From a virus (Duplodnaviria; Heunggongvirae; Uroviricota; Caudoviricetes), in IMG/VR virus record IMGVR_UViG_3300018878_000133, positions 1-64,000 of that record: a stretch of DNA of 64,000 bases; one strand, given 5' to 3'. Position numbers and translations under genes: made by a program. This document shows, one piece after another, positions 3,616 to 60,767 of this stretch (positions are counted from its first letter, which is position 1; each line of letters begins with the position of its first letter). The notes under the pieces are model-generated. The model saw only the letters and a list, made by a program, of their open reading frames with translations, was not told the origin of the DNA and did no database searches.

Positions 3616-4506
3616 ATGGCAATTGGATTTTTTGTAGGTATTTTGTTAGCGGTCTTGGCTATTGGCTGCGGCATTGGTGTTTATTACTGCTCAGAGAATG
3701 ACATTGCGGCTGGTAAGGTAATTTGTATTATTTTAACTGTTATCTTCTGTATTAGCTTTATTGCGGTACCGTTCTCGTTTCGTACTGTGAATTCTGGCGA
3801 GATCGCTGTAGTTAAAACTTTAGGTAAGATTACAGGTACTAGAGACGCAGGCACGAATTTTGACCTTTGGATGACCACTTCTTATTCAAAGTATGATACT
3901 AAGGTGCAGAATGTAGAAATTATTACTGCTGCTTATTCTAGTGATGCACAAACTATGGATGTAGCCATGACACTTCAGTACCGAGTCGTTCCTGATAAGG
4001 TAACTGATATTGCTACTCAGTATGGTACTCTTGAGGTACTACAGGGACGTATTCAGTCTATTGTTATTGAAAAAACTAAGGCTGTACTTTCCTCACATAA
4101 AGCTATGAATATTATTGCAAATAGAGCTGCTATCTCGCCTGAGGTAGAAGCAGCAGTCAAAGCAGCTGTTGACGAGGGCTACTTTATCAGTGTAGAAGCT
4201 GTAGTGCTTACTAATATCGATTTTTCTGATTCTTTTGAAAAAGCAGTAGAGGACAAGATGGTAGCCGAACAGGCAAAGCTTAAGGCTGATTATGATAATG
4301 AGACAAAGATTGCAAAGGCAGAGGCAGATGCAAAAGCTCTTAAAATTGCTGCTGAAGCAGAAGCAGCTGCTAATAAGCTTCTTACTCAATCTCTGACTGA
4401 CCAAGTACTTGAATCTAAATTTTACGAAAAGTGGGATGGCAAGCTTCCTCAGGTTATGGGTGAAGGTTCAGCTATCCTAGATATTAGAGACGAGATTGAA
4501 GAATAA
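3616..4506 (+). CDS. SPFH/band-7 (stomatin/prohibitin-like) membrane protein
   Basis: N-terminal TM helix, then 'RTVNSGEIAVVKTLGKI...DLWMTTSYSKYDTKVQNVEIITAAYSSDAQTMDVAMTLQYRV' typical of the SPFH domain; Ala/Glu/Lys coiled-coil C-terminus. Confidence 0.75.
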   Translation: MAIGFFVGILLAVLAIGCGIGVYYCSENDIAAGKVICIILTVIFCISFIAVPFSFRTVNSGEIAVVKTLGKITGTRDAGTNFDLWMTTSYSKYDTKVQNVEIITAAYSSDAQTMDVAMTLQYRVVPDKVTDIATQYGTLEVLQGRIQSIVIEKTKAVLSSHKAMNIIANRAAISPEVEAAVKAAVDEGYFISVEAVVLTNIDFSDSFEKAVEDKMVAEQAKLKADYDNETKIAKAEADAKALKIAAEAEAAANKLLTQSLTDQVLESKFYEKWDGKLPQVMGEGSAILDIRDEIEE

Positions 4507-4521
4507 CCTTTAAATAACTAA

Positions 4522-4556
4522 AAGCCTAGGGTTAAAATATCCTAGGCTTTTATTGT
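4522..4556 (+). terminator. rho-independent terminator
   Basis: AGCCTAGG-gttaaaatat-CCTAGGCT followed by TTTTATTG. Confidence 0.65.
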
Positions 4557-4592
4557 ATTATATATTGATAAATATTAGTTAGGAGGCGTTAC

Positions 4593-5087
4593 ATGTTAAA
4601 TACTTTGTTTTCAATGACAACTCTATATTTCTTTTTAATTAGTTTAACTAACGTTATTTTATCTAGTACAAAAAGTATCTGTACTGTCAGATATGGCAGA
4701 GGTATTAATGTACTAACCAATGTTATTGCTTATTCTTTTTATACAGTAGTAGTTAAACAGACTGCCAATCTCCCTTTAGAGATTACGGTTATTGCTACAG
4801 CCATTGCTAATGCTTTAGGCGTTTGGATTAGCTATGCTATTTTGGACTTAATTCAGAAAGATAGGTTGTGGAAGATTGAAGTTGTTGTTCCAAAACATTA
4901 CGAAGTAGTTATTCACGAAACGCTTATTCATATTCCGCATGACTATATTGAGGTAGGCCCTAAGACGCTATTTAATTTTTATTGTAGCACAAAAACGGAA
5001 ACTAAAGAAGTTATAGAGCAATGTAAAAAATATCATGGAAGATTTTTTGCTGTAGAGAATAAATATAAAGGATTTGAGAGAGAATGA
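4593..5087 (+). CDS. membrane protein, possible NfeD-like partner of the SPFH protein
   Basis: Several predicted TM helices in the N-terminal half and a beta-rich soluble C-terminus; adjacent to an SPFH gene as NfeD-type genes usually are. Assignment is inference only. Confidence 0.4.
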   Translation: MLNTLFSMTTLYFFLISLTNVILSSTKSICTVRYGRGINVLTNVIAYSFYTVVVKQTANLPLEITVIATAIANALGVWISYAILDLIQKDRLWKIEVVVPKHYEVVIHETLIHIPHDYIEVGPKTLFNFYCSTKTETKEVIEQCKKYHGRFFAVENKYKGFERE

Positions 5088-6366: not shown

Positions 6367-6552
6367 ATGTTCAATATTAATAGCAAAACTGATAAAGTTA
6401 ATTTAGATTTTAATGTAAATAAACTTATTATAAAATTAAATAAAGATACATTAGTTGACACTAGCATAGAGCCAAAAGAAATAAAAAGCAACGACCAGGA
6501 GATTCAACCAGTAACTAAACGAGTAACTGAGCCTATGTTTGAAATTTATTAG
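6367..6552 (+). CDS. small hypothetical protein
   Basis: 61-aa ORF with RBS AAGGAG 8 nt upstream; followed by a terminator. Confidence 0.35.
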   Translation: MFNINSKTDKVNLDFNVNKLIIKLNKDTLVDTSIEPKEIKSNDQEIQPVTKRVTEPMFEIY

Positions 6553-6592
6553 GGTAGATTCATTATTGAGTCTACCCTATTTTTATTTTACA
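6551..6592 (+). terminator. rho-independent terminator
   Basis: GGGTAGA-ttcattattga-GTCTACCC followed by TATTTTTATTTT. Confidence 0.65.
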
Positions 6593-6606
6593 AAAGTTAA
6601 GAAAAC

Positions 6607-6618
6607 TGCTAAATTATA
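6607..6618 (+). promoter_or_regulatory. conserved TGCTAAATTATA promoter-like motif (copy 1)
   Basis: Exact 12-mer shared with 19023, 43365 and 44496; lies 33-44 nt upstream of a start codon. Confidence 0.45.
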
Positions 6619-6650
6619 TGATACTAAAATTTTACTAGGAGGGCTTGCGC

Positions 6651-7229
6651 TTGCTAAGTTATTGTACAAATTATCTCGCCACTATGCCGGATATAACTGT
6701 ATATATGAACTGTGATACCAGACTTGCAATAAATTTACGCATGTTTGACTTGGGCGAAAATGACGAGTTTATTTTTGCCATAAAAAATTACAGCTACATA
6801 GACTCGCCATACGTATTTTTATTTCGAGCTAGAAAAACAGACATAGACGAAAACGGCGAAGTCATCTTTAAGATTACTCCTGAAGCATCTAAACACCTAA
6901 AGCCAGGAGCTTTTTATAATTTTGCCGTTTTAATTAATGCTTTTGATCCTAAAGAAGAGACAGAGTATAAAAAGTTAACTGAAAACGGAAATATTCAAAT
7001 TGAATATGGTGCTCAAGATTTACTGATAAAACCTGAACCTGGCGAGTTCCAAGGGTCTATTATTGGAGTACGTTTAGAACTTTTGGACGATATTTCTTCA
7101 ATTGATCCTGATATATATAAATGCGAAGTGCTTGGTGTTAGACTAGAGTTACTGGACGAAATTTCTTCTGTACCTCCGGCTATAAACGAAATTATTAGTA
7201 TGCGTTTAGAGCCTCTAGAAAATAACTAA
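6651..7229 (+). CDS. hypothetical protein with internal tandem repeat (start uncertain, TTG)
   Basis: Track ORF starts at TTG 6645, only 1 nt after the AGGAGGG RBS; in-frame TTG at 6651 is better spaced. C-terminus carries a 3x repeat 'IIGVRLELLDDISSIDP / VLGVRLELLDEISSVPP / IISMRLEPLE'. Confidence 0.5.
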   Translation: MLSYCTNYLATMPDITVYMNCDTRLAINLRMFDLGENDEFIFAIKNYSYIDSPYVFLFRARKTDIDENGEVIFKITPEASKHLKPGAFYNFAVLINAFDPKEETEYKKLTENGNIQIEYGAQDLLIKPEPGEFQGSIIGVRLELLDDISSIDPDIYKCEVLGVRLELLDEISSVPPAINEIISMRLEPLENN

Positions 7230-44906: not shown

Positions 44907-45090
44907 AATAACTGAAAAATTTATCGTATAATAAATTAAAAAATAATAAAAGTATATTATATATAATAATATAATTAATTATTATAATATATTTATAATA
45001 TATTTTTTATTTGCACAGCAAAATTTTTTAGTTATTGTTGTGCAAAATTTAAAACTTAATACTGTATAATATGATGTAATTAATTTAGAG

Positions 45091-47377: not shown

Positions 47378-47399
47378 GAGACTATGCTTATTTCTTAAC
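47378..47399 (+). repeat. repeat family copy 3 (TAGAGACTATGCTTATTTCTTA)
   Basis: Same core motif, directly upstream of the permuted tRNA-like element. Confidence 0.5.
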
Positions 47400-47408
47400 G
47401 CCTTTTAA

Positions 47409-47480
47409 GCGGGTGGTCGTTGGTTCGAATCCAACCATTTCATCTGTTAGGTGAAATGTAGCTCAGCGGTAGAGCACCTT
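47409..47480 (+). ncRNA. permuted tRNA-like element (T-arm + 3' acceptor strand joined by a 5-nt loop to 5' acceptor strand + D-arm)
   Basis: 'GTTGG-TTCGAAT-CCAAC CATTTCATC tgtta GGTGAAATG TAGC-TCAGCGGTA-GAGC'. GGTGAAA pairs with TTTCATC (one G-U) across a closing loop; no anticodon arm. Confidence 0.4.
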
Positions 47481-47569
47481 TTAGCTAGTCCAAATATTTT
47501 TAATAATTTATTAAATTATTAATTTAATAAGTGCTAAATTTATAAAGAACACATTGTATAATAAAATAC

Positions 47570-48965: not shown

Positions 48966-49117
48966 GGCGCGTTGGTCAAGCGGTTAAGACACCGCCCTTT
49001 CGTTAGATTAGCCAAAAGGTAAGGCAGGCCACTAGAGATAGAGGTTATGTGTCAGTTCGAGTCTGACATCTAGCACCAACGGCGGTATCACGGGTTCGAT
49101 TCCCGTACGCGTCACCA
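48966..49117 (+). tRNA. tRNA-Glu-like gene (anticodon-loop CTTTC..AC) interrupted by a 77-nt tRNA-shaped insertion
   Basis: Outer gene GGCGCGT-TG-GTCAAGCGGTTAAGAC-A-CCGCC-[..]-GGCGG-TATCA-CGGGT-TCGATTC-CCGTA-CGCGTCA-CCA. Insert 49012-49088 has its own acceptor GTTAGAT/ATCTAGC, D-arm GCC-AAAAGGTAA-GGC, T-arm GTCAG-TTCGAGT-CTGAC and terminal ACCA. Confidence 0.5.
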
Positions 49118-52141: not shown

Positions 52142-52212
52142 TGCTTAAAATATTTATAAAATTTGTTAAAATATATAAATTCGTATCGTATAATAAATAT
52201 GTAATTAAATAT

Positions 52213-52812: not shown

Positions 52813-52910
52813 CACGATATAGCTTATGTGGTAAAGCATCCGAATCCCAGGAAAAAGACCAAGATTGATTTCTTGAAGATAAGTAGGTTCAAGTCCTGCT
52901 GTCGTGTCCA
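52813..52910 (+). ncRNA. over-long tRNA-like element (~97 nt) without a canonical anticodon arm
   Basis: Acceptor CACGATA/TGTCGTG + T-CCA, D-arm GCTT-ATGTGGT-AAGC, T-arm GTAGG-TTCAAGT-CCTGC. The 44-nt central region forms CAAGA-TTGATT-TCTTG instead of a 5+7+5 anticodon arm. Confidence 0.35.
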
Positions 52911-55062: not shown

Positions 55063-55630
55063 GAGGAGCCAGGTGGGTTTCGTAGAGTTACCGTTGAATA
55101 ACTATGTGCTTGTCGTTTTAAGAAACGAGTGGGTATAAAGCCCCACAAATATCAAATAGTAAGGGCACATGCGAGCTATGAAACCAGAAGTTAAGTAGTG
55201 AAGGAAGCATGGGTGTGGCTGGTTACCGCTTTATCAAAAATCATAGTGTTAACTATGTGAGGTAAAGATGTCTATGTGGTGATATCTACTGTGAACTGTT
55301 GTGCGAGTTCACCTATTTGATAGGGCTGGTTGAAAGACCCTGGTCCATCGAGTAAGGGAACATATCCCTTAACAAAATCCTTAATGGTCATTGTGCTGAC
55401 AATGTGGTAATCTGAAACATAGAATTTTGGTGTAAAGACTAAAATGTTTGGGCAAACGATAAATGCTCCCAAATTTGCTTATTAAGGAATAAGATAGTTG
55501 GCAGACAACGATAAAATCAGTTATAGCCTGTACCCTTGAGAAACTCGTATCAGGTAATTTATATTACTGTGGATAAGCAGGCAAGTAGTGAAATAAAAGG
55601 GTAAGAGAATAAACTACATTATAAAATATA
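55063..55630 (+). ncRNA. ORF-free GC-elevated segment (candidate structured RNA)
   Basis: ~570 nt between tRNA-Asn and tRNA-Met-like. No plus-strand ORF >=60 aa; only a 66-aa minus-strand ORF of doubtful reality. Many G/C-rich local hairpins (e.g. GGGTATAAAGCCCCAC). Confidence 0.3.
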
Positions 55631-55631
55631 T

Positions 55632-55706
55632 CGCGGGGTAGAGCAGAGGTAGCTCACTGTCCTCATAAGTCAGGTGTCGAAGGTTCGAATCCTTCCCCCG
55701 CCTCCA
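55632..55706 (+). tRNA. tRNA-Met-like (anticodon CAT) with C1xC72 and one anticodon-stem mismatch
   Basis: CGCGGGG-TA-GAGC-AGAGGTA-GCTC-A-CTGTC-CTCATAA-GTCAG-GTGTC-GAAGG-TTCGAAT-CCTTC-CCCCGCC-T-CCA. Confidence 0.6.
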
Positions 55707-55850
55707 AAGGTTCGCTTGTACCTTGCCAACACAAGTACGCACGGCTCAGCGGTAAATGAGCGTAACGGCAGTTCGCAGGAAGTTATGCGAACTAAGCGTT
55801 GGTACTACAGCAATGTGATACAAAGCATCGGCAATGCACTGTAGCTATAT

Positions 55851-55936
55851 GGCAAATTGGTGTAAGGTAGCATAAGACAGAATGCCCTATCAACGGGATT
55901 GGATTGTCAGGAACTAGTTCGAGTCTAGTATTTGTC
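55851..55936 (+). tRNA. tRNA-like gene with ~16-nt insertion in the anticodon loop
   Basis: Acceptor GGCAAAT/ATTTGTC (no CCA), T-arm ACTAG-TTCGAGT-CTAGT; anticodon stem GACAG/TTGTC encloses a 23-nt loop containing the mini-hairpin GCCC-TATCAAC-GGG. Confidence 0.4.
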
Positions 55937-56168
55937 TTTTAAGCTTCTTTGTTATAGCATTAATGCGCATTATCTATGCAATCCAAGGCTACGGTAATCG
56001 ACCTATAACAGAAGACAAATTGATGCATCAATCGTTTCACCAAGGTGTGAGCGGGTCAACATTCCAAGAGTAAGAACTTTGGTTGAGGAATGAGAGGTTT
56101 AATATAGATAGGATGAACAGTTAGCAACGCTTGAGGTAACCTTAAAAAACTCAGCCATGCTACCATAT

Positions 56169-56313
56169 GGCTCCGTAGTTCAGATGGTTAGAACGCCTGC
56201 CTGTGCTTTATTAGTTTAATAGTAAAACACTCTTATAAAGAGATGCTAGTGCAAGACTAGTATAAGGCTCCACACGCAGGAGGTCGTCGGTTCGATCCCG
56301 ATCGGAGTCGCCA
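56169..56313 (+). tRNA. tRNA (anticodon-loop remnants CTGTG..AC or CT..CACAC: His/Val-like) interrupted by a 68-nt tRNA-shaped insertion
   Basis: Outer gene GGCTCCG-TA-GTTC-AGATGGTTA-GAAC-G-CCTGC-[75-nt loop]-GCAGG-AGGTC-GTCGG-TTCGATC-CCGAT-CGGAGTC-G-CCA. Insert carries acceptor-like CTTTAT/ATAAGG, D-arm-like GTTT-AATAGTA-AAAC and T-arm-like CTAGT-GCAAG-ACTAG. Confidence 0.5.
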
Positions 56314-56522
56314 AAGGTCTACTGTTAGGTATTTTCATACGACCTTATACAAATAAACATTTAGAAAATATGCGGGAGCTTAGAGGTACGGTAGACTTAT
56401 CTACGAAGCGTTTTGACCCGGTTAAAACTCGAAACGAATCGTGTTTATAAGAAGCAATCATGAGCTCTTTTTAATCATGGTGTAGGCGAGGGTTGAGACC
56501 TGCATAACAGTCCCTCTTATAT

Positions 56523-56595
56523 GCTGGTTTAGCTCAGTTGGTAGAGCAGCTCACTTGTAATGAGCAGGTCGGGGGTTCAAGTCCGTCAACCAGCT
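56523..56595 (+). tRNA. tRNA-Thr (anticodon TGT), no encoded CCA
   Basis: GCTGGTT-TA-GCTC-AGTTGGTA-GAGC-A-GCTCA-CTTGTAA-TGAGC-AGGTC-GGGGG-TTCAAGT-CCGTC-AACCAGC-T. Confidence 0.7.
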
Positions 56596-56665
56596 GACTC
56601 ACAATGGACATACCTTCACGTGGTGTGAGTTGTTAATTAAACTGAATTGTCCAATAAATAAGTAA

Positions 56666-56705
56666 CCTAGTTAGTAATGCAGCTGCTACTAAGTTACTAA
56701 CTAGG
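56666..56705 (+). promoter_or_regulatory. large imperfect palindrome overlapping RBS/start region of the GIY-YIG gene
   Basis: CCTAGTTAGTAA-tGCAGCTGCtactaag-TTACTAACTAGG; 12-bp perfect arms around the palindromic GCAGCTGC core. Confidence 0.5.
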
Positions 56706-56713
56706 TGATTCTT

Positions 56714-57385
56714 ATGGCTTATATTTATAAAATTACAAATAATCTTAATGGCAAGGCTTACATAGGTCAAACACTTTATTCATTAGAAAAAAGGTTTGCA
56801 GAGCATTTAAAAGACAGCGCTAGAACTGGTCACAGTAAAAGACCTCTGTACAAAGCTATGTTAAAGTATGGTTATTCAGCTTTTACTATAGAAGTTGTTG
56901 AAGAACTAGCTGATGATCCAGAGCTTTTAAATGACCGAGAAATTTATTGGATTACGAAATTTCATACTTTTTGTAAAGATCCGCTTGGTCCTGGTTATAA
57001 CGCTACTTTGGGTGGCGGAAGCAAGATGCTTTATGATAGACGCGCGATTATTCAGTATTTACGTAATAATAATTGTGTTAAGGATGCTGCAGAAGTTTTT
57101 AAGTGCACAAAAGACACAATTATCGATATTGCTAAAGCTGCTAATATTCAAGTTAAGTCTAGCCCGGATTTAGTAAAAGAGCTTTATAGTAAACCAATAA
57201 ATATTTATGATTTAAAAAATAATTTAATTCATAGTGTTACTAATTCTTATGAAGCTGAGCAGTGGATTCGAGATAGTGGTATTTCTGATGCTAAAGGCGG
57301 CGCAATTAGAGCTCACATTCTAGAGGTTTGCAAAGGTAAACGAAAAACTGCTTATGGCTTTATATGGAGATACTTGAAAGATTAA
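56714..57385 (+). CDS. GIY-YIG homing endonuclease (free-standing, seg-like)
   Basis: 'YIYKITNNLNGKAYIGQT...RFAEH' GIY-YIG catalytic motif at the N-terminus and a basic C-terminal DNA-binding region. Track ORF starts at GTG 56705; the ATG at 56714 is preferred. Confidence 0.8.
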   Translation: MAYIYKITNNLNGKAYIGQTLYSLEKRFAEHLKDSARTGHSKRPLYKAMLKYGYSAFTIEVVEELADDPELLNDREIYWITKFHTFCKDPLGPGYNATLGGGSKMLYDRRAIIQYLRNNNCVKDAAEVFKCTKDTIIDIAKAANIQVKSSPDLVKELYSKPINIYDLKNNLIHSVTNSYEAEQWIRDSGISDAKGGAIRAHILEVCKGKRKTAYGFIWRYLKD

Positions 57386-57444
57386 TTTGTTGAATATGAC
57401 TGGCGTTAATGCTTAGGTAGCGAGGCGAAAAGTGATAGCTAAAG

Positions 57445-57497
57445 AACTTGCGGTGTACAGTTTCCTAACCGGCCGAGTCAGTCATATTTATATATGC
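57445..57497 (+). ncRNA. tRNA minihelix-like element (acceptor stem + T-arm only)
   Basis: TGCCCGT-tatggcgttga-GTGGG-TTCGAAT-CCTAC-CGCGGGCA-CC. Confidence 0.3.
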
Positions 57498-57613
57498 CCG
57501 TTATGGCGTTGAGTGGGTTCGAATCCTACCGCGGGCACCGAGTGCTGTTAACAAGCACAAAGATTTGCAAATGTGTTTTAGTTCTGGACGTAATTAACCC
57601 AGGGCTAAGATAT

Positions 57614-57689
57614 GGGCCCATAGCTCAATTGGGAGAGCACTAGTCCTGCAAACTAGAGGTCGCGAGTTCGACCCTCGCTGGGTCCACCA
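57614..57689 (+). tRNA. tRNA-Ala (anticodon TGC)
   Basis: GGGCCCA-TA-GCTC-AATTGGGA-GAGC-A-CTAGT-CCTGCAA-ACTAG-AGGTC-GCGAG-TTCGACC-CTCGC-TGGGTCC-A-CCA. Confidence 0.85.
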
Positions 57690-57738
57690 AAAGGTTTTTA
57701 AATATTTTTTAAAATTAAATTAAAATTTTAAAAAACAT

Positions 57739-57750
57739 ATTGTATAATAT
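57739..57750 (+). promoter_or_regulatory. extended -10 promoter TTGTATAATATA
   Basis: TGn-TATAAT consensus; starts an ORF-free unit that ends at the 58451 terminator. Confidence 0.5.
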
Positions 57751-58450
57751 AATATCAACAATTTGTACCTTGAAAGATAAATATAATTACTAACTCAGTG
57801 CTAAACACAAGACACGCTTCTTGTGCTGAGAATGCAACTAAGCGAAAGCTGAACAATGTGTGATGGTAACATAAGAGGGATACCTCGGAAACCGCGCTAC
57901 TTATATATGCGAGTATATGAGTTAAGGGTAGGACCCGAAACATATGTTGTATGTGCTGATGTTATAGCAAGTAATGGTAGGAAGAGTCTCGTGAGAGTAA
58001 TAGAAAGCTTGGTTAATAGCTGAGCCGAATCCAAGTTAGGGTTTAGTTGGTGACTGTATTACACCTTGGAAATGCCAATAATCTCATTTGTCGTGAACCA
58101 TAGAAATGTGGGTATAAGAGATTCAAGTAACCTCCTAGTAGCCGAAGACAATTAACAAAGAATTAATGCTAGTATATAATTAGGAATACTGATATTAATT
58201 TTTTCTGAATAGACGGTGAGGGGTGCAGGTAATCAATCCTGTCATAGTTTATGTAGTCCAGGGCTTGGCCGTTAACCAAGTACCCAGATTTCGTGGCAAG
58301 AAGTTAGGGGTCGCTCCCCGAAGCTCAGACTTGTCATCTATGTGACCGAATGTACTTGAATATAACAAGTGGTAAGGCGAAGGCCTAGGAATGTATTATA
58401 TTTATCTTTGAATGTATAAGGTGTACCTCCTTTGTTTATTTTGCAAGGAT
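57751..58450 (+). ncRNA. candidate long non-coding RNA (promoter-to-terminator unit without ORF)
   Basis: ~700 nt, GC noticeably higher than flanking DNA, bounded by the TTGTATAAT promoter and a strong intrinsic terminator. No plus-strand ORF >=60 aa. Confidence 0.35.
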
Positions 58451-58492
58451 TTTTTTTAAGAAAGTTACTTAGATATAAGTAACTTTCTTTTT
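58451..58492 (+). terminator. rho-independent terminator
   Basis: AAGAAAGTTACTTA-gata-TAAGTAACTTTCTT perfect 14-bp hairpin followed by T8. Confidence 0.8.
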
Positions 58493-58579
58493 TTTATTGT
58501 ATGATATTATAGTAAAAGTTTATGATCAAGTAATGATGAATTGGAATATCTTTATCGATTATGTATGGGAGAATTTAAA

Positions 58580-59131
58580 ATGAAAAAACCATTAGTTGTT
58601 AATTTAACAGGAGCTCCAGGTGCTGGAAAAAGCACTGGTGCAGCAACTATTTTTGCAGAGCTTAAAAAAGCTGGTGTTAATGCAGAACTTGTAACAGAAT
58701 TTGCTAAAGATAAGACCTGGGAGCATAATATTATGGCTCTAGGTTGTCAAGAATATGTGTTTGGTAAACAGTCTTATAGATTACGTAGATGCCGAGATGA
58801 TGTCGATGTGATTGTGACTGATAGCCCGCTTCCTCTTAGTATTATTTATAATACTAATCCTGCAATAACTGAGTCTTATCCAAGGTTAGTCATGGATGTT
58901 TATAATACATATGAAAATATTAATTTCTTTATTAACAGAGTTAAACCTTACAACCCTAAAGGCCGAAATCAGACAGAAGAAGAAAGTGATCGTATAAGTG
59001 TCCGCATTAAAGATTTATATAAAGGTCTTGGTATTGATTATTTTGAAATTAACGGCGATAATGAAGGTTATGACTATGCAGTTAAGACTGTATTAAGCAT
59101 ACTAGCAGGAGGTATAAAATATGAGTACTAA
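58580..59131 (+). CDS. P-loop NTPase (NadR/AAA_28-like kinase fold)
   Basis: Walker A 'LTGAPGAGKSTGAA'; Walker-B-like 'VDVIVTDSPL'; RBS GGGAGAA 7 nt upstream of the ATG at 58580. The track ORF begins earlier at 58541. Confidence 0.55.
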   Translation: MKKPLVVNLTGAPGAGKSTGAATIFAELKKAGVNAELVTEFAKDKTWEHNIMALGCQEYVFGKQSYRLRRCRDDVDVIVTDSPLPLSIIYNTNPAITESYPRLVMDVYNTYENINFFINRVKPYNPKGRNQTEEESDRISVRIKDLYKGLGIDYFEINGDNEGYDYAVKTVLSILAGGIKYEY

Positions 59132-59975
59132 AGATGCACTTGGTGATAGAATGAAAGAATTCTATGAAAATAGGAGTAAACATTATCTACCTAGACGAGT
59201 TCCTGTAATCATTAGACTTGACGGCAAAGCTTTCCACACCTTCACTAAAGGTCTTAAGAGGCCTTATGACGAGATTTTCCACAATACTATGAATGCGACT
59301 ATGAAGTATCTCTGTGAGAATATCCAGGGTTGTAAGCTTGGTTATACACAGTCAGACGAAATCACTCTTCTTCTCACAGACTATGACACTCTTGATACCG
59401 ATGCTTGGTTTGGTTATAATGTGCAGAAAATGTGCAGCGTGTCAGCAAGCATGGCAACAATGGTTTTCAATAAGTATCTTAGAGAATTAATTGATAATTA
59501 TTTACAGTCTGATGTATGGGTAAACCATTATTGGGAAGAAGATGTTGAGAAATATGCTAATACATTAAAGAAGGCTATTGACAATGGTGCAATGTTTGAT
59601 TCTCGCTGTTTTAACATTCCTAAAGAAGAAGTTACCAACTGCTTCATCTGGCGTCAGCAGGATGCTACTCGCAACGCAATTCAGATGCTTGGTCAGTGCA
59701 ACTTCTCTCATAAGGAACTACACGGTAAGTCTTGCAATGACATTCAAGATATGTTAATGACTCAGAGAGGTATCAATTTTAATGATATGCCTACTGAGTT
59801 TAAACGTGGTGTCTGCTGTAATCGTGTAGAAAAAGAAGATATTTGTATTGATTTTAAAACAAAAGAAGAGACTCGCTGTATGAGAAGTGAATGGGTAATC
59901 GATAAAGAAATTCCCATTTTTACTCAAGATAGATACTACATTGAACGGTGGGTTTACTCAGAAGGAGATAAATAA
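59121..59975 (+). CDS. Thg1-like protein (tRNA-His guanylyltransferase / 3'-5' nucleotidyltransferase family)
   Basis: 'VPVIIRLDGKAFHTFTKGL..PYDE.F...M' and 'GYTQSDEITLLL' match the Thg1 palm-domain signatures (V.RIDG..FH.F...F.KP.D; GESDEYSF). Confidence 0.7.
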   Translation: MSTKDALGDRMKEFYENRSKHYLPRRVPVIIRLDGKAFHTFTKGLKRPYDEIFHNTMNATMKYLCENIQGCKLGYTQSDEITLLLTDYDTLDTDAWFGYNVQKMCSVSASMATMVFNKYLRELIDNYLQSDVWVNHYWEEDVEKYANTLKKAIDNGAMFDSRCFNIPKEEVTNCFIWRQQDATRNAIQMLGQCNFSHKELHGKSCNDIQDMLMTQRGINFNDMPTEFKRGVCCNRVEKEDICIDFKTKEETRCMRSEWVIDKEIPIFTQDRYYIERWVYSEGDK

Positions 59976-60767
59976 ATGCCTAAGCTTTTTGTTGTTTCTG
60001 ATATTCACAGTTTCTTAGAACCACTTAAAAATGCTTTAGACAGAGCAGGTTTTGACCCTAATAACGAAGAACACTGGCTGATTTCGTGCGGCGATTGCTT
60101 TGATAGGGGTCCTAATAGTATTGAATTGTTGCACTATTTAATGTCGCTTGAGCGAAAGATTCTAGTAAAAGGTAATCATGACCTACTTTTTGACGATCTT
60201 TGCGCAAGATGTTTTCCATATAGCCACGATAAGTCTAATGGCACTGTAAGAACTGTTCAAGACCTCGGTGGAAGTCCTCTTCCGGCGGATTTTGCTAAGT
60301 GCTGTGATACAGCTTTGAATAAAACGGCAGCGTATCGCGACCTACTTGTAAACTATTTTGAAACTGAAAAGTATATTTTTGTTCATAGTTGGATTCCTAC
60401 TATTACTCATTATGATAAAGGTGCTAGTAAGCCTTGGCACCAGGTTGGAAAATACTACGAATACAATGAGAACTGGCGTAATGCTTCCGAGGTAGAGTGG
60501 GAAGAAGCTATGTGGGGTAATCCTTTCTGGAAAGCACAAGACGGTATGAACAAAACCGGTAAGACAATCGTATTCGGACATTGGCATTGTTCTTTAGGTC
60601 ATTTATGCGATAGTCAAGGTGAGCTATCAGAGTTTGGTGATGATGCCAAGTGGGATCCGTACTTTAACGAATCTCAAGGAATCATCGGCATTGATCGCTG
60701 TACTGCACATACTGGTGAAGTTAACGTACTAGTTTTAGATGATAATTTTATTGGAGGCGATAATTAA
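59976..60767 (+). CDS. calcineurin-like metallophosphoesterase
   Basis: 'VVSDIHS', 'CGDCFDRGPNS', 'VKGNHDLLF', 'GHWH' match MPP motifs I-V (DxH, GDxxDRG, GNHD/E, GH). Confidence 0.75.
   Translation: MPKLFVVSDIHSFLEPLKNALDRAGFDPNNEEHWLISCGDCFDRGPNSIELLHYLMSLERKILVKGNHDLLFDDLCARCFPYSHDKSNGTVRTVQDLGGSPLPADFAKCCDTALNKTAAYRDLLVNYFETEKYIFVHSWIPTITHYDKGASKPWHQVGKYYEYNENWRNASEVEWEEAMWGNPFWKAQDGMNKTGKTIVFGHWHCSLGHLCDSQGELSEFGDDAKWDPYFNESQGIIGIDRCTAHTGEVNVLVLDDNFIGGDN

Follow-up and report, generated by a model that had tools for sequence, protein, structure and literature searches.

The DNA considered here is a 64,000-nucleotide (nt) stretch of a Caudoviricetes genome (IMG/VR record IMGVR_UViG_3300018878_000133, positions 1 to 64,000), below called the window, whose numbering is used for all coordinates. 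It carries a tRNA island with 18 tRNAs called by ARAGORN, a ROOL RNA and other noncoding RNAs (ncRNAs), and within this array, between tRNA-Thr(UGU) and tRNA-Ala(UGC), lies a gene for a GIY-YIG homing-type endonuclease (Table 1). The original prediction, made from the sequence alone, had recognized a free-standing gene of this type inside the array, had taken it for the only mobile-type gene of the island and had likened it to T4 segB, which is also a free-standing GIY-YIG gene in a tRNA array; the placement and the parallel both stand, and for the window the absence of other mobile-type genes from the island agrees with the precomputed Pfam calls. Read in the direction of transcription, tRNA-Thr (Rfam tRNA, 65.5 bits), which stops at its discriminator base, whereas all other normal tRNAs of the window have an encoded CCA, is followed by a predicted theta-type ribozyme, an A-rich linker, a hairpin, a Shine-Dalgarno (SD) sequence and the endonuclease open reading frame (ORF). 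We consider it probable that these parts together form a free-standing GIY-YIG cassette of the SegB kind, seated at the 3' end of tRNA-Thr(UGU); the identity of the cassette is well supported.

The ORF list gives the gene as 56705..57385, starting from a GTG; we set the start at ATG 56714, since MAYIYKITN is the conserved N terminus in all homologues and AGGTGA lies 5 nt upstream. The protein matches the Pfam GIY-YIG profile PF01541 (E = 1.1e-9; 38.9 bits against a cut-off of 22.6), the PHROG homing-endonuclease families (4e-28) and the catalytic domain of I-TevI (1mk0/1ln0; E = 4.6e-9), aligning to I-TevI residues 5-84. Across an alignment of 25 homologues with 40-96% identity, Y5, Y16, G18, R27, H31, E76 and N96 are invariant, and these we take to correspond to the I-TevI catalytic residues. 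The AlphaFold (AF2) model has a mean predicted local distance difference test score (pLDDT) of 82.8; its N-terminal domain superposes on I-TevI 1ln0 with a template modeling (TM) score of 0.85 and a root mean square deviation of 2.3 Å at 31% identity, residues 97-105 form a low-pLDDT linker, and the helical/beta C-terminal half resembles the DNA-binding region of I-HmuI (E = 3.8e-3). NUMOD1 was found in 14 of the 25 homologues, besides weak helix-turn-helix (HTH) matches. As judged from these comparisons, the protein joins an intact GIY-YIG catalytic domain to a modular DNA-binding half, the two-part build usual for GIY-YIG homing endonucleases. The family is large (1902 homologues at E<=1e-10), and the free-standing status of the gene is borne out by the absence of any group I or group II intron match between tRNA-Thr and tRNA-Ala.

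The original prediction had suggested comparing the locus with related phages for presence or absence of the gene, and both states were found. Megablast of 55500-58500 against 50,697 phage records returned tRNA-sized matches only and no close sequenced relative, and no close relative was found in GenBank phages or IMG/VR; IMG/VR relatives reached through Thg1 (<=76% identity) are non-syntenic, hold no close endonuclease homologue and were unusable for this comparison, and the GIY-YIG relatives at 29-38% identity in the Thg1 loci come without the hairpin and without the tRNA-Thr context. Syntenic relatives were chosen through the flanking AAA_28 protein, not through the endonuclease; relatives retrieved by the endonuclease or the hairpin are biased toward filled sites, and L194, L197 and L198 alone were retrieved independently. 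L194 (219-kb contig) and L198 (228-kb contig) have a gene order like that of the window (lysozyme, tRNA array, tRNA-Asp, tRNA-Thr(UGU), tRNA-Ala, ROOL, AAA_28, Thg1, metallophosphatase) and no GIY-YIG gene at the site, which is filled in the window and in L192. In both empty alleles tRNA-Thr ends in ...CCAGCT followed by CCA, and there is no ribozyme, no hairpin and no ORF; the distance from this CCA to tRNA-Ala is 154 nt in L194, and L198 has a 792-nt spacer. In L194 the CCA is followed by 57 nt and then by a conserved element (ATATGATTGGCGT...), which in the window starts 8 nt past the ORF stop. Homology between the window and L194 runs up to 56440 (90% identity) and begins again at 57394 (85%), the left part of the intervening segment being an allele-specific block upstream of tRNA-Thr that is partly similar to the corresponding region of L097/L098. 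Against L198, whose tRNA-Thr is 88% identical, the break falls exactly past the discriminator base, where L198 has CCA and the window has GACTCACA....

The same site can also be filled by a different allele. L192 and L193 share the backbone and carry an ORF only 50-51% identical to that of the window (66% at the nucleotide level) behind a leader that is 95-100% identical; in these two, the tRNA-Thr(UGU) before the cassette (L192 5800-5882) is an 83-nt form that has a long variable arm and whose sequence is unrelated to that of the 73-nt tRNA-Thr of the window, and its flanks and the leader are nearly identical. tRNA-Thr(UGU) precedes all of the closer alleles (77-84% aa identity; L095-L098, L108) as well as those of the 50% clade (L099-L105, L109), and the neighbours vary on both sides, being tRNA-Lys, tRNA-Met or tRNA-Glu upstream and tRNA-Gly, or a 114-aa ORF with thymidine kinase, downstream. 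The unit of tRNA-Thr, ribozyme, hairpin and ORF thus stays together across arrays while its neighbours change. That some relatives have nothing at this site and others hold divergent alleles there, with the cassette standing in different arrays, is the pattern of a mobile homing-endonuclease gene, and the gene is not conserved at one site in all relatives.

The element between tRNA-Thr and the hairpin was overlooked by the original prediction, and with it the transcript must be read differently. Theta ribozymes have been described with their G1 at the 3' end of gut-phage tRNAs, mostly without an encoded CCA (Kienbeck et al. 2024, PMC10879173), and the supplement to that paper gives their order as P1-J-P2-ACC-T-CC-ACGT-GGT-P1'-GG-L4-CTAA-P2'. 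The window element reads GACTCAC-AA-TGGACA-T-ACC-T-TC-ACGT-GGT-GTGAGTT-GT-TAATTAAA-CTGAAT-TGTCCA, and thus resembles the published ribozymes in its segment order, in its core (ACC-U-YC-ACGU-GGU), in the position of its G1 (56596) directly after the discriminator of a tRNA without CCA (56595) and in coming from a large phage of the kind found in gut or rumen samples. It can be folded as a nested double pseudoknot (P1, P2 crossing P1, P3 and a minimal P4), the predicted cut falling between 56595 and 56596, directly after the discriminator, and the equivalent of the candidate catalytic C at 56642 is present in all parsed relatives. Because a MAFFT alignment of the 18 ribozymes put gaps wrongly in P1 (the alignment of the outer helix described below had the same problem), we parsed each sequence individually and compared cognate with non-cognate helices, in place of counting pairs by alignment column. 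The window and 17 relatives (18 unique instances in the fetched loci) parse into P1, P2 and P3, and three chance core matches do not; cognate helices average 6.75 base pairs (bp), against 3.8 and 4.3 bp for non-cognate ones (13 distinct P1 and 13 distinct P2). By these parses, the element shows the published theta architecture with covarying P1 and P2. It is the only one of theta type in the window.

Ribozyme, missing CCA and endonuclease ORF go together among the relatives. Ten of 27 unique tRNA-Thr(UGU) 3' flanks have the ribozyme, and in each of these ten CCA is missing and a GIY-YIG ORF follows within 400 nt; the other 17, mostly ending in CCA, have no ORF directly behind, and in L127 a GIY-YIG ORF does lie within 400 nt of tRNA-Thr, with tRNA-Gln in between. 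The same association is seen well beyond this lineage. In IMG/VR, where counts were taken over non-dereplicated records, family members at 36-41% identity lie mostly in tRNA arrays and start 17-170 nt after a tRNA. A combined pattern (theta core, 40-70 nt, then ATG-x-Y-I-Y) occurs at 37 sites, of which 36 hold a GIY-YIG homologue; a tRNA end (Leu, Met, Pro, Gln, Phe or suppressor) is found within 1 nt of G1 at 24 of these sites. A single contig may hold as many as three sites, many of the sites belong to TAG-recoded phages, and two copies in IMG/VR look degenerate (L205, L224). With the strict pattern for the ribozyme only, 115 instances were found, and 37 of the 106 evaluable ones (35%) are followed by a GIY-YIG ORF within 200 nt; behind the others stands the next tRNA in 21 cases, another ORF in 15 and nothing obvious in 33, and among unique ribozyme sequences (first 80 of 114 stretches) the count is 18/59. 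In the same loci, a GIY-YIG gene stands behind 23 of 63 theta-bearing tRNAs against 24 of 636 without theta (odds ratio 14.7, p = 5e-14). Theta ribozymes are therefore strongly enriched before GIY-YIG ORFs in IMG/VR. Three relatives at 41-45% identity without a theta core (L110, L116, L191) have another shared leader motif, ...CGCAACCAAAATTTT..., repeated between tRNA and ORF.

The association could also be read the other way round, with the ribozyme as a resident tRNA-maturation device of the phage, downstream of which GIY-YIG genes land or are tolerated, perhaps because they target the DNA of the ribozyme or tRNA end. A general role in tRNA 3' processing was proposed in the theta paper (PMC10879173), and the 69 IMG/VR instances followed by a tRNA, another ORF or nothing obvious are in keeping with it, as is a separate theta ribozyme in L107 (11285-11345), which stands after tRNA-Glu and before a terminator-like hairpin, with no endonuclease gene. 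An identical ribozyme, moreover, occurs with an ORF (L279, L283, L315, L318) and without one (L265, L292, L319). In the lineage of the window, on the other hand, ribozyme and ORF come and go together, the empty alleles having CCA and no ribozyme and the filled ones a ribozyme and no CCA, and the window holds no second ribozyme of this type. The filled allele of the L279 lineage, in which the ORF begins 7 nt after the ribozyme with no SD sequence between, carries at the 3' end of the ORF a 15-nt duplicate of the tRNA 3' end with CCA behind it, so that, to go by the sequence, ribozyme and ORF look as if they had been inserted jointly between acceptor end and CCA; this bracketing suggests that ribozyme-only alleles arose there by secondary loss of the ORF. 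The window has no such duplicate of the tRNA-Thr 3' end. On balance we hold a resident ribozyme to be the less likely explanation, though one to be taken seriously.

Between ribozyme and ORF stands a hairpin, the palindrome of the original prediction, which exists and is one base pair longer on each side than had been noted. Its predicted folding energy is -19.2 kcal/mol, and 0.025 perfect inverted repeats of at least 13 bp with a loop of 3-20 nt are expected by chance in a window of the same composition; since about eight other such hairpins, mostly terminator-like, occur in the window, its length alone is unremarkable in this genome. What sets it apart is its conservation. In nine GIY-YIG alleles the 42 nt of the hairpin are 98-100% identical to those of the window, compared with 77-95% for the ribozyme, 52-93% for the tRNA and 64-81% (nucleotide) or 49-84% (aa) for the ORF, and ATAAGTAA of the linker is likewise kept in all alleles. 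A scan of JGI metagenomes gave seven hairpin matches, including a chance match inside coding sequence (L106) and one in L107 (Ga0326512_10000220), a TAG-recoded phage with a suppressor tRNA(CTA). In L107 (8826-9860 region) the hairpin directly follows a tRNA-Val ending in CCA and precedes a 319-aa ORF that has in-frame TAG codons, shows no GIY-YIG similarity and carries Zn-finger motifs besides a weak signal of the PD-(D/E)XK/endonuclease kind (phrog_15427, 1.6e-5); this hairpin agrees with that of the window in all of its inner 30 nt and has compensatory changes in the outer stem (CCUAG/CUAGG to CUUAGA/UCUAAG). A 24-mer and a degenerate pattern of the hairpin gave no matches in IMG/VR, nor did a hairpin scan of GTDB genomes, copies of the hairpin arm elsewhere in the window are not above chance, and no diverged copies were found in 2.3 Mb of related loci.

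The folding of the 5' untranslated region called for by the original prediction was carried out, and four of the six SD positions and part of the start codon are predicted to be paired. The claim that the palindrome lies over the RBS is right for AGGU, which is part of the stem base, but GA and the AUG lie outside the 13-bp stem; a predicted outer helix, AUAAG (56658-56662) with CUUAU (56711-56715), takes in the A and U of the AUG, whose unpaired probabilities are 0.1-0.16. For the six SD positions the partition function gives unpaired probabilities of 0, 0, 0, 0.02, 0.99 and 0.96 (AGGU, <=0.03), and forcing the SD sequence single-stranded would cost about 10 kcal/mol in the window leader. An equivalent outer helix, differing in sequence, is predicted in 10/10 alleles (in L107 as AAACU/GGUUU, taking in the GG of the SD), and pairing of SD and start codon in 9/9 GIY-YIG alleles; when 5' flanks were shuffled, pairing as good as observed came up in 1-7% of trials with five of the alleles, and the other two gave 20% and 66%, a control that is suggestive only. 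Across the family, GIY-YIG genes have more structure in their 5' regions than controls do (p about 1e-6). Sequestration of the RBS, the role proposed in the original prediction, is therefore the best-supported reading of the hairpin, as far as folding predictions go (AGGU paired at >0.97 and some 10 kcal/mol needed to open the SD), but it leaves the invariant loop and inner stem without an explanation. Their invariance can possibly be explained by (i) a sequence-specific partner, (ii) alternative pairings of the words UUAGUAA, UACUAAG and UUACUAA or (iii) a use of the hairpin as a recombination module, with which the mosaic L192 fits.

Another explanation is that the hairpin is mainly a sequence-specific recognition element (a site in RNA bound by a phage or host protein, or an operator or landing pad in DNA for the NUMOD/HTH modules of array-resident nucleases) and that any effect on translation is secondary. 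The inner 30 nt, loop included, are invariant in ten alleles whose ORFs go down to 49-51% aa identity, while the adjacent ribozyme covaries freely; the same core stands before the unrelated Zn-finger/PD-(D/E)XK-like ORF behind tRNA-Val in L107, with the outer stem alone changed; the inner words just named permit alternative pairings; and L192 joins a window-like leader to an ORF of the 50% clade, as if the leader were an exchangeable module or recombination arm. Against this, no binding partner is known, no further or diverged copy turned up in the related loci, IMG/VR or GTDB, a cleavage site of the enzyme in its own hairpin would mean that the donor is cut, the centres of the two arms are 29 bp apart, an unusual spacing for a dimeric operator, and there are no G.U pairs or strand asymmetry to tell a role at the RNA level from one at the DNA level. 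We regard recognition as the main role of the hairpin as possible, though not the likelier of the two, and keep to sequestration of the RBS in what follows.

Table 1. Features of the tRNA-Thr(UGU) to tRNA-Ala(UGC) interval (window coordinates)
Feature	Position	Strand	Remarks
Allele-specific block	56441..56522	+	82 nt, upstream of tRNA-Thr; left part of the segment unlike the empty allele L194
tRNA-Thr(UGU)	56523..56595	+	ARAGORN; stops at discriminator base, no encoded CCA
Predicted theta-type minimal HDV-like ribozyme	56596..56653	+	58 nt, between tRNA-Thr and hairpin (HDV, hepatitis delta virus)
Predicted ribozyme P1	56596-56602 with 56625-56631	+	G1.U wobble
Predicted ribozyme P2	56605-56610 with 56648-56653	+	crosses P1
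Predicted ribozyme P3	56612-56614 with 56622-56624	+	L3 is UUCACGU
Candidate catalytic C	56642	+	first position of J4/2; AAA-C-UGAAU before P2'
A-rich linker	56654..56664	+	AATAAATAAGT(A); includes AUAAG (56658-56662), 5' strand of predicted outer helix
Invariant hairpin	56665..56706	+	13-bp perfect stem, 16-nt loop UGCAGCUGCUACUAAG
Hairpin arms	56665-56677 and 56694-56706	+	13 nt each, 100% complementary
SD sequence AGGTGA	56703..56708	+	AGGT within stem base; 5 nt to ATG
GIY-YIG homing-type endonuclease gene	56714..57385	+	223 aa; catalytic domain ~1-100, linker ~97-105, NUMOD/HTH-type DNA-binding half ~106-223
Right insert junction	57386..57392	+	L194 homology back at ~57393-57394
Element 'X'	57393..57490	+	closed by AATATGACTG/CAGTCATATT; in filled and empty alleles; marks resident right flank
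tRNA-Ala(UGC)	57614..57689	+	next resident gene downstream

Taken together, these features suggest a course of events for expression and spread. A scan with a sigma-70 consensus, which may not fit the host of the phage, showed no promoter-like site between tRNA-Thr and the ATG (56596-56713), and hence none that would yield a transcript without the 5' arm of the hairpin; the TYGTATAATA motif of the island stands at 52186 and then not before 57740. The possibility that the linker holds a late promoter of the T4 type was considered and ruled out, since only ...TAAGTAAC is conserved and the rest is variable. With no promoter-like site seen between tRNA and start codon, the endonuclease gene is probably transcribed as part of a long tRNA precursor. 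The ribozyme would then cut between 56595 and 56596, freeing tRNA-Thr and making the 5'-OH end of the endonuclease mRNA, and as this cut falls exactly after the discriminator, the insertion would not destroy the tRNA; the freed tRNA-Thr would need end-healing and CCA addition by phage or host enzymes, for which the neighbouring metallophosphatase and kinase-like genes are end-healing candidates only. Hairpin and outer helix would hold the AGGU of the SD and the AU of the AUG, and the nuclease would in consequence be translated weakly. By analogy with SegB, the enzyme might cut endonuclease-free alleles at or near the tRNA-Thr 3' end/CCA, and repair would copy the cassette with neighbouring sequence, the tRNA-Thr gene included (co-conversion); the filled allele would be immune because the ribozyme replaces CCA and trailer.

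The closest parallel is T4 SegB (Brok-Volchanskaya et al. 2008, PMC2330249), which recognizes the T-psi-C motif GGTTCRANTCC, often cuts after CCAR and spreads with neighbouring tRNA genes, and whose gene has a predicted hairpin of -20.2 kcal over SD and start codon. Both GIY-YIG genes stand among tRNA genes (segB is co-transcribed with them, and here we infer the same), both are absent from otherwise homologous tRNA regions of related phages, in both cases neighbouring tRNA genes travel along and a hairpin of about -20 kcal/mol is predicted on SD and start codon, and the insertion point here is the tRNA 3' end/CCA, where SegB cuts. The differences lie in the protein, which has only about 30% identity to SegB-like proteins, in the upstream tRNA, which in the window has lost its CCA to the cassette, and in the hairpin, which is invariant in sequence over divergent alleles. 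We know of no ribozyme at T4 segB.

Hairpins that sequester the RBS have been described for the T4 endonucleases I-TevI to I-TevIII and for mobE of Aeh1 (Gott et al. 1988 and Gibb & Edgell 2007, quoted in PMC2330249), and the window hairpin resembles them as a stable local structure predicted to occlude the initiation region of a nuclease gene on read-through transcripts. By the same account, the T4 I-Tev genes have a late promoter in or next to the hairpin that makes an open transcript, of which none was seen here; the core of the present hairpin, moreover, is invariant and common to an unrelated ORF. In contrast to the tRNA-maturation and recoding view of the theta paper, the predicted ribozyme here would be a 5' leader of an endonuclease mRNA and is gained and lost with the endonuclease.

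Outside phages, R2 and other non-LTR (long terminal repeat) retrotransposons reportedly carry HDV-like ribozymes at their 5' ends. An R2-type element in a structural RNA gene is co-transcribed with that gene, and its HDV-like ribozyme cuts the element off and sets the 5' end of the mRNA, so that here as there a mobile element appears co-transcribed with a structural RNA gene and an HDV-like ribozyme separates the two; R2, however, is a eukaryotic, RNA-mediated retroelement in rDNA, whereas the locus described here would be a homing cassette at the DNA level in a phage tRNA array, whose upstream product, a tRNA, must be rescued. Twin-ribozyme group I introns combine the lariat-capping ribozyme GIR1 with the homing-endonuclease gene of I-DirI, and share with the window a small ribozyme directly upstream of a homing-endonuclease ORF that processes the mRNA 5' end (in the window by prediction), but GIR1 is a group-I-derived branching ribozyme in a eukaryotic self-splicing intron, and the window has no intron.

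A wider proposal, to which we give not quite an even chance, is that GIY-YIG genes of gut and rumen phages invade tRNA 3' ends as cassettes that bring their own theta ribozyme and a portable hairpin, and that the ribozyme outlives the ORF. If this is true, (i) the ribozyme plays the part that self-splicing plays for intron-borne endonucleases, since cutting the cassette RNA off the tRNA lets the host gene survive and makes the endonuclease mRNA; (ii) with encoded CCA and trailer gone, the ribozyme becomes indispensable and outlives the ORF; (iii) a large share of "tRNA-maturation" theta ribozymes are parts or footprints of selfish endonuclease cassettes; and (iv) the invariant hairpin is a second portable leader module common to unrelated array-resident nucleases. 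Phage tRNA clusters were known to hold SegB-type endonucleases, and theta ribozymes had been found behind phage tRNAs; the link between theta ribozymes and GIY-YIG genes seems to be new, and the pairing is common in gut phages. The theta paper (PMC10879173) does not mention endonucleases, homing, GIY or selfish elements, and a full-text search, with incomplete coverage of the literature, gave no paper connecting homing endonucleases of phages with HDV-like ribozymes. Roughly one in three strict theta ribozymes in IMG/VR stands before a GIY-YIG gene, and the lineage of the window gains or loses both together, which suggests that this abundant class of ribozymes differs in origin and function from what had been proposed, serving the processing of a selfish element rather than, or besides, phage-encoded tRNA maturation or code switching. 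The arrangement would be a bacterial-virus counterpart to the R2 and twin-ribozyme ways of expressing a mobile element from a structural RNA transcript, and the hairpin common to unrelated nuclease genes is an unexplained cis-element.

Several observations weigh against the reading of the locus as a mobile, ribozyme-processed cassette: (i) the exact endonuclease protein occurs on about 22 contigs, mostly of about 220 kb (e.g., ERZ27248370 k141_4000472, 220,267 bp), always in the same context and in ~22/~22 cases with the cassette, and exact-protein look-ups of the endonuclease and two flanking proteins returned the same phage only, again always with the cassette, so that no polymorphism is seen within the species-level population; (ii) the comparison does not tell whether the cassette was gained or lost; (iii) among the Rfam HDV-like models tested, HDV-F-prausnitzii (RF02682) aligns end-to-end at 56596-56654 with 13.7 bits (E = 1.6; region scanned alone), where the gathering score is 44, and a wider Rfam scan of the window gave no HDV-like match at the ribozyme; (iv) the ribozyme is a variant, with L3 UUCACGU and GU after P1' in place of the published UCCACGU ... 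GG, so that with UC ... GU, as in the window and the rest of its clade, a single C-G pair and a U.U stand in place of the two base pairs of P1.1; (v) CCTTCACGTGG occurs 0 times in the accessible part of the supplementary list of the theta paper, from which the variant is thus absent, and a 20-mer of it has no match in IMG/VR; (vi) the identical ribozyme with and without an ORF in the L279 lineage means that the ribozyme is not always part of the indel; (vii) occlusion of the SD is only partial, L107 having an unpaired AUG and no SD bases paired other than GG; (viii) occlusion alone does not account for the invariant loop and inner stem; (ix) a fully paired SD is not enriched across the family (16% versus 13%, p = 0.5), and no family-wide rule of occlusion is claimed; and (x) the activity of the ribozyme, the role of the hairpin and the cleavage target are inferred, all function being predicted. 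As to the variant, the HDV-like ribozyme of CPEB3 has the same L3, UUCACGU, with GU, and by this analogy activity of the window ribozyme is plausible.

If the cassette is mobile, it may still be asked whether the gene is no longer, or not only, selfish and is kept for a benefit to the phage, such as the exclusion of co-infecting relatives or the amplification or exchange of the island. The ORF is intact and identical on all of the roughly 22 contigs, the catalytic residues are invariant over the large family, and according to a 2026 paper (PMC13096335) anti-defence loci, tRNA loci among them, undergo segmental amplification that is promoted by SegB; a single site showing both presence/absence and replacement of alleles is, however, the classic pattern of a mobile homing-endonuclease gene, and the degenerate copies in IMG/VR likewise speak against a benefit, so we judge this improbable. 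A strong stem in a polycistronic RNA, in a window whose other long perfect hairpins are in many cases terminator-like, might finally be a transcription terminator or an RNase processing site parting the tRNA unit from the ORF, which is very improbable given that the stem is A/U-rich with no U-run behind it and is not listed in the terminator scan, that the sequence after it varies (GAUUCUU, AGACGUU, AGACCUU), that 13-14 bp are short for RNase III and that the ribozyme already offers a processing site 60 nt upstream.

To the right of the cassette, element 'X' is followed by a tRNA-like minihelix (acceptor and T arm, GCCCG...GTGGGTTCGAATCCTAC CGCGGGCACC) and a small hairpin (57497-57585, + strand), and neither element 'X' nor the minihelix region matches an Rfam family. 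Element 'X' is kept in L192 and L194, and its 3' part from ~57445, together with the minihelix, in L198. Directly after tRNA-Ala comes the ROOL RNA (RF03087, 286 bits; 57770-58406, + strand), with a promoter-like TTGTATAATA (57740-57749) before it and a terminator hairpin of 14 bp plus T-run (58458-58489) behind it; its position is the same in L192, L194 and L198, and in L095 it lies elsewhere in the array. TYGTATAATA is found on the + strand at 44924, 47554, 48422, 52186 and 57740, within or before the tRNA island, nine times in the window against 4.2 expected, and recurs after A/T-rich stretches behind several tRNAs of L194 and L198; it probably marks the promoters of island transcription units. 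Downstream (58580-60767 and beyond) lies a cluster of genes related to RNA ends, comprising an AAA_28 kinase-like protein, a Thg1-like tRNA-His guanylyltransferase and a metallophosphatase whose N terminus matches a PHROG "RNA ligase" family; a KTI12/AAA_33 plus HD protein (L001 16763-17707) belongs to the same cluster, for which tRNA repair or end-healing functions are possible.

On the left, tRNA-Asp(GUC) (56169-56312, + strand) is split by a 68-nt insert in its anticodon loop (...CCTGCCTGT[68 nt]CACGCAGG...); it was missed by ARAGORN, scores 50.5 bits over 142 nt in Rfam, and its insert is too short for a group I intron. The orthologous tRNA-Asp is uninterrupted in L192 and L194, and just upstream of it L194 has an endonuclease VII/HNH-like ORF that is absent from the window (6473-7042; PF02945; phrog_2914, 1.5e-15), a second nuclease-gene indel in the array, adjoining the site of the interrupted tRNA-Asp. 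Nothing was found to support the suggestion of the original prediction that the endonuclease had a part in producing the aberrant tRNAs; the sole relevant hints are the difference in tRNA-Thr between alleles (the 83-nt variant of L192) and the allele-specific block at 56441-56522, both compatible with co-conversion around a break and not with the creation of aberrant tRNAs. Two over-long Rfam tRNA matches on the + strand, not called by ARAGORN (48966-49114, 149 nt; 52813-52907, 95 nt), may be further interrupted or aberrant tRNAs. Other ncRNA matches in the island are to DUF3800-XI RNA (55322-55368; 40.1 bits, just over the gathering score) and to a YrlA/Y-RNA-like RNA (47391-47510; 39 bits, under the gathering score), and L194 carries skipping-rope and drum RNAs at 4497-4935.

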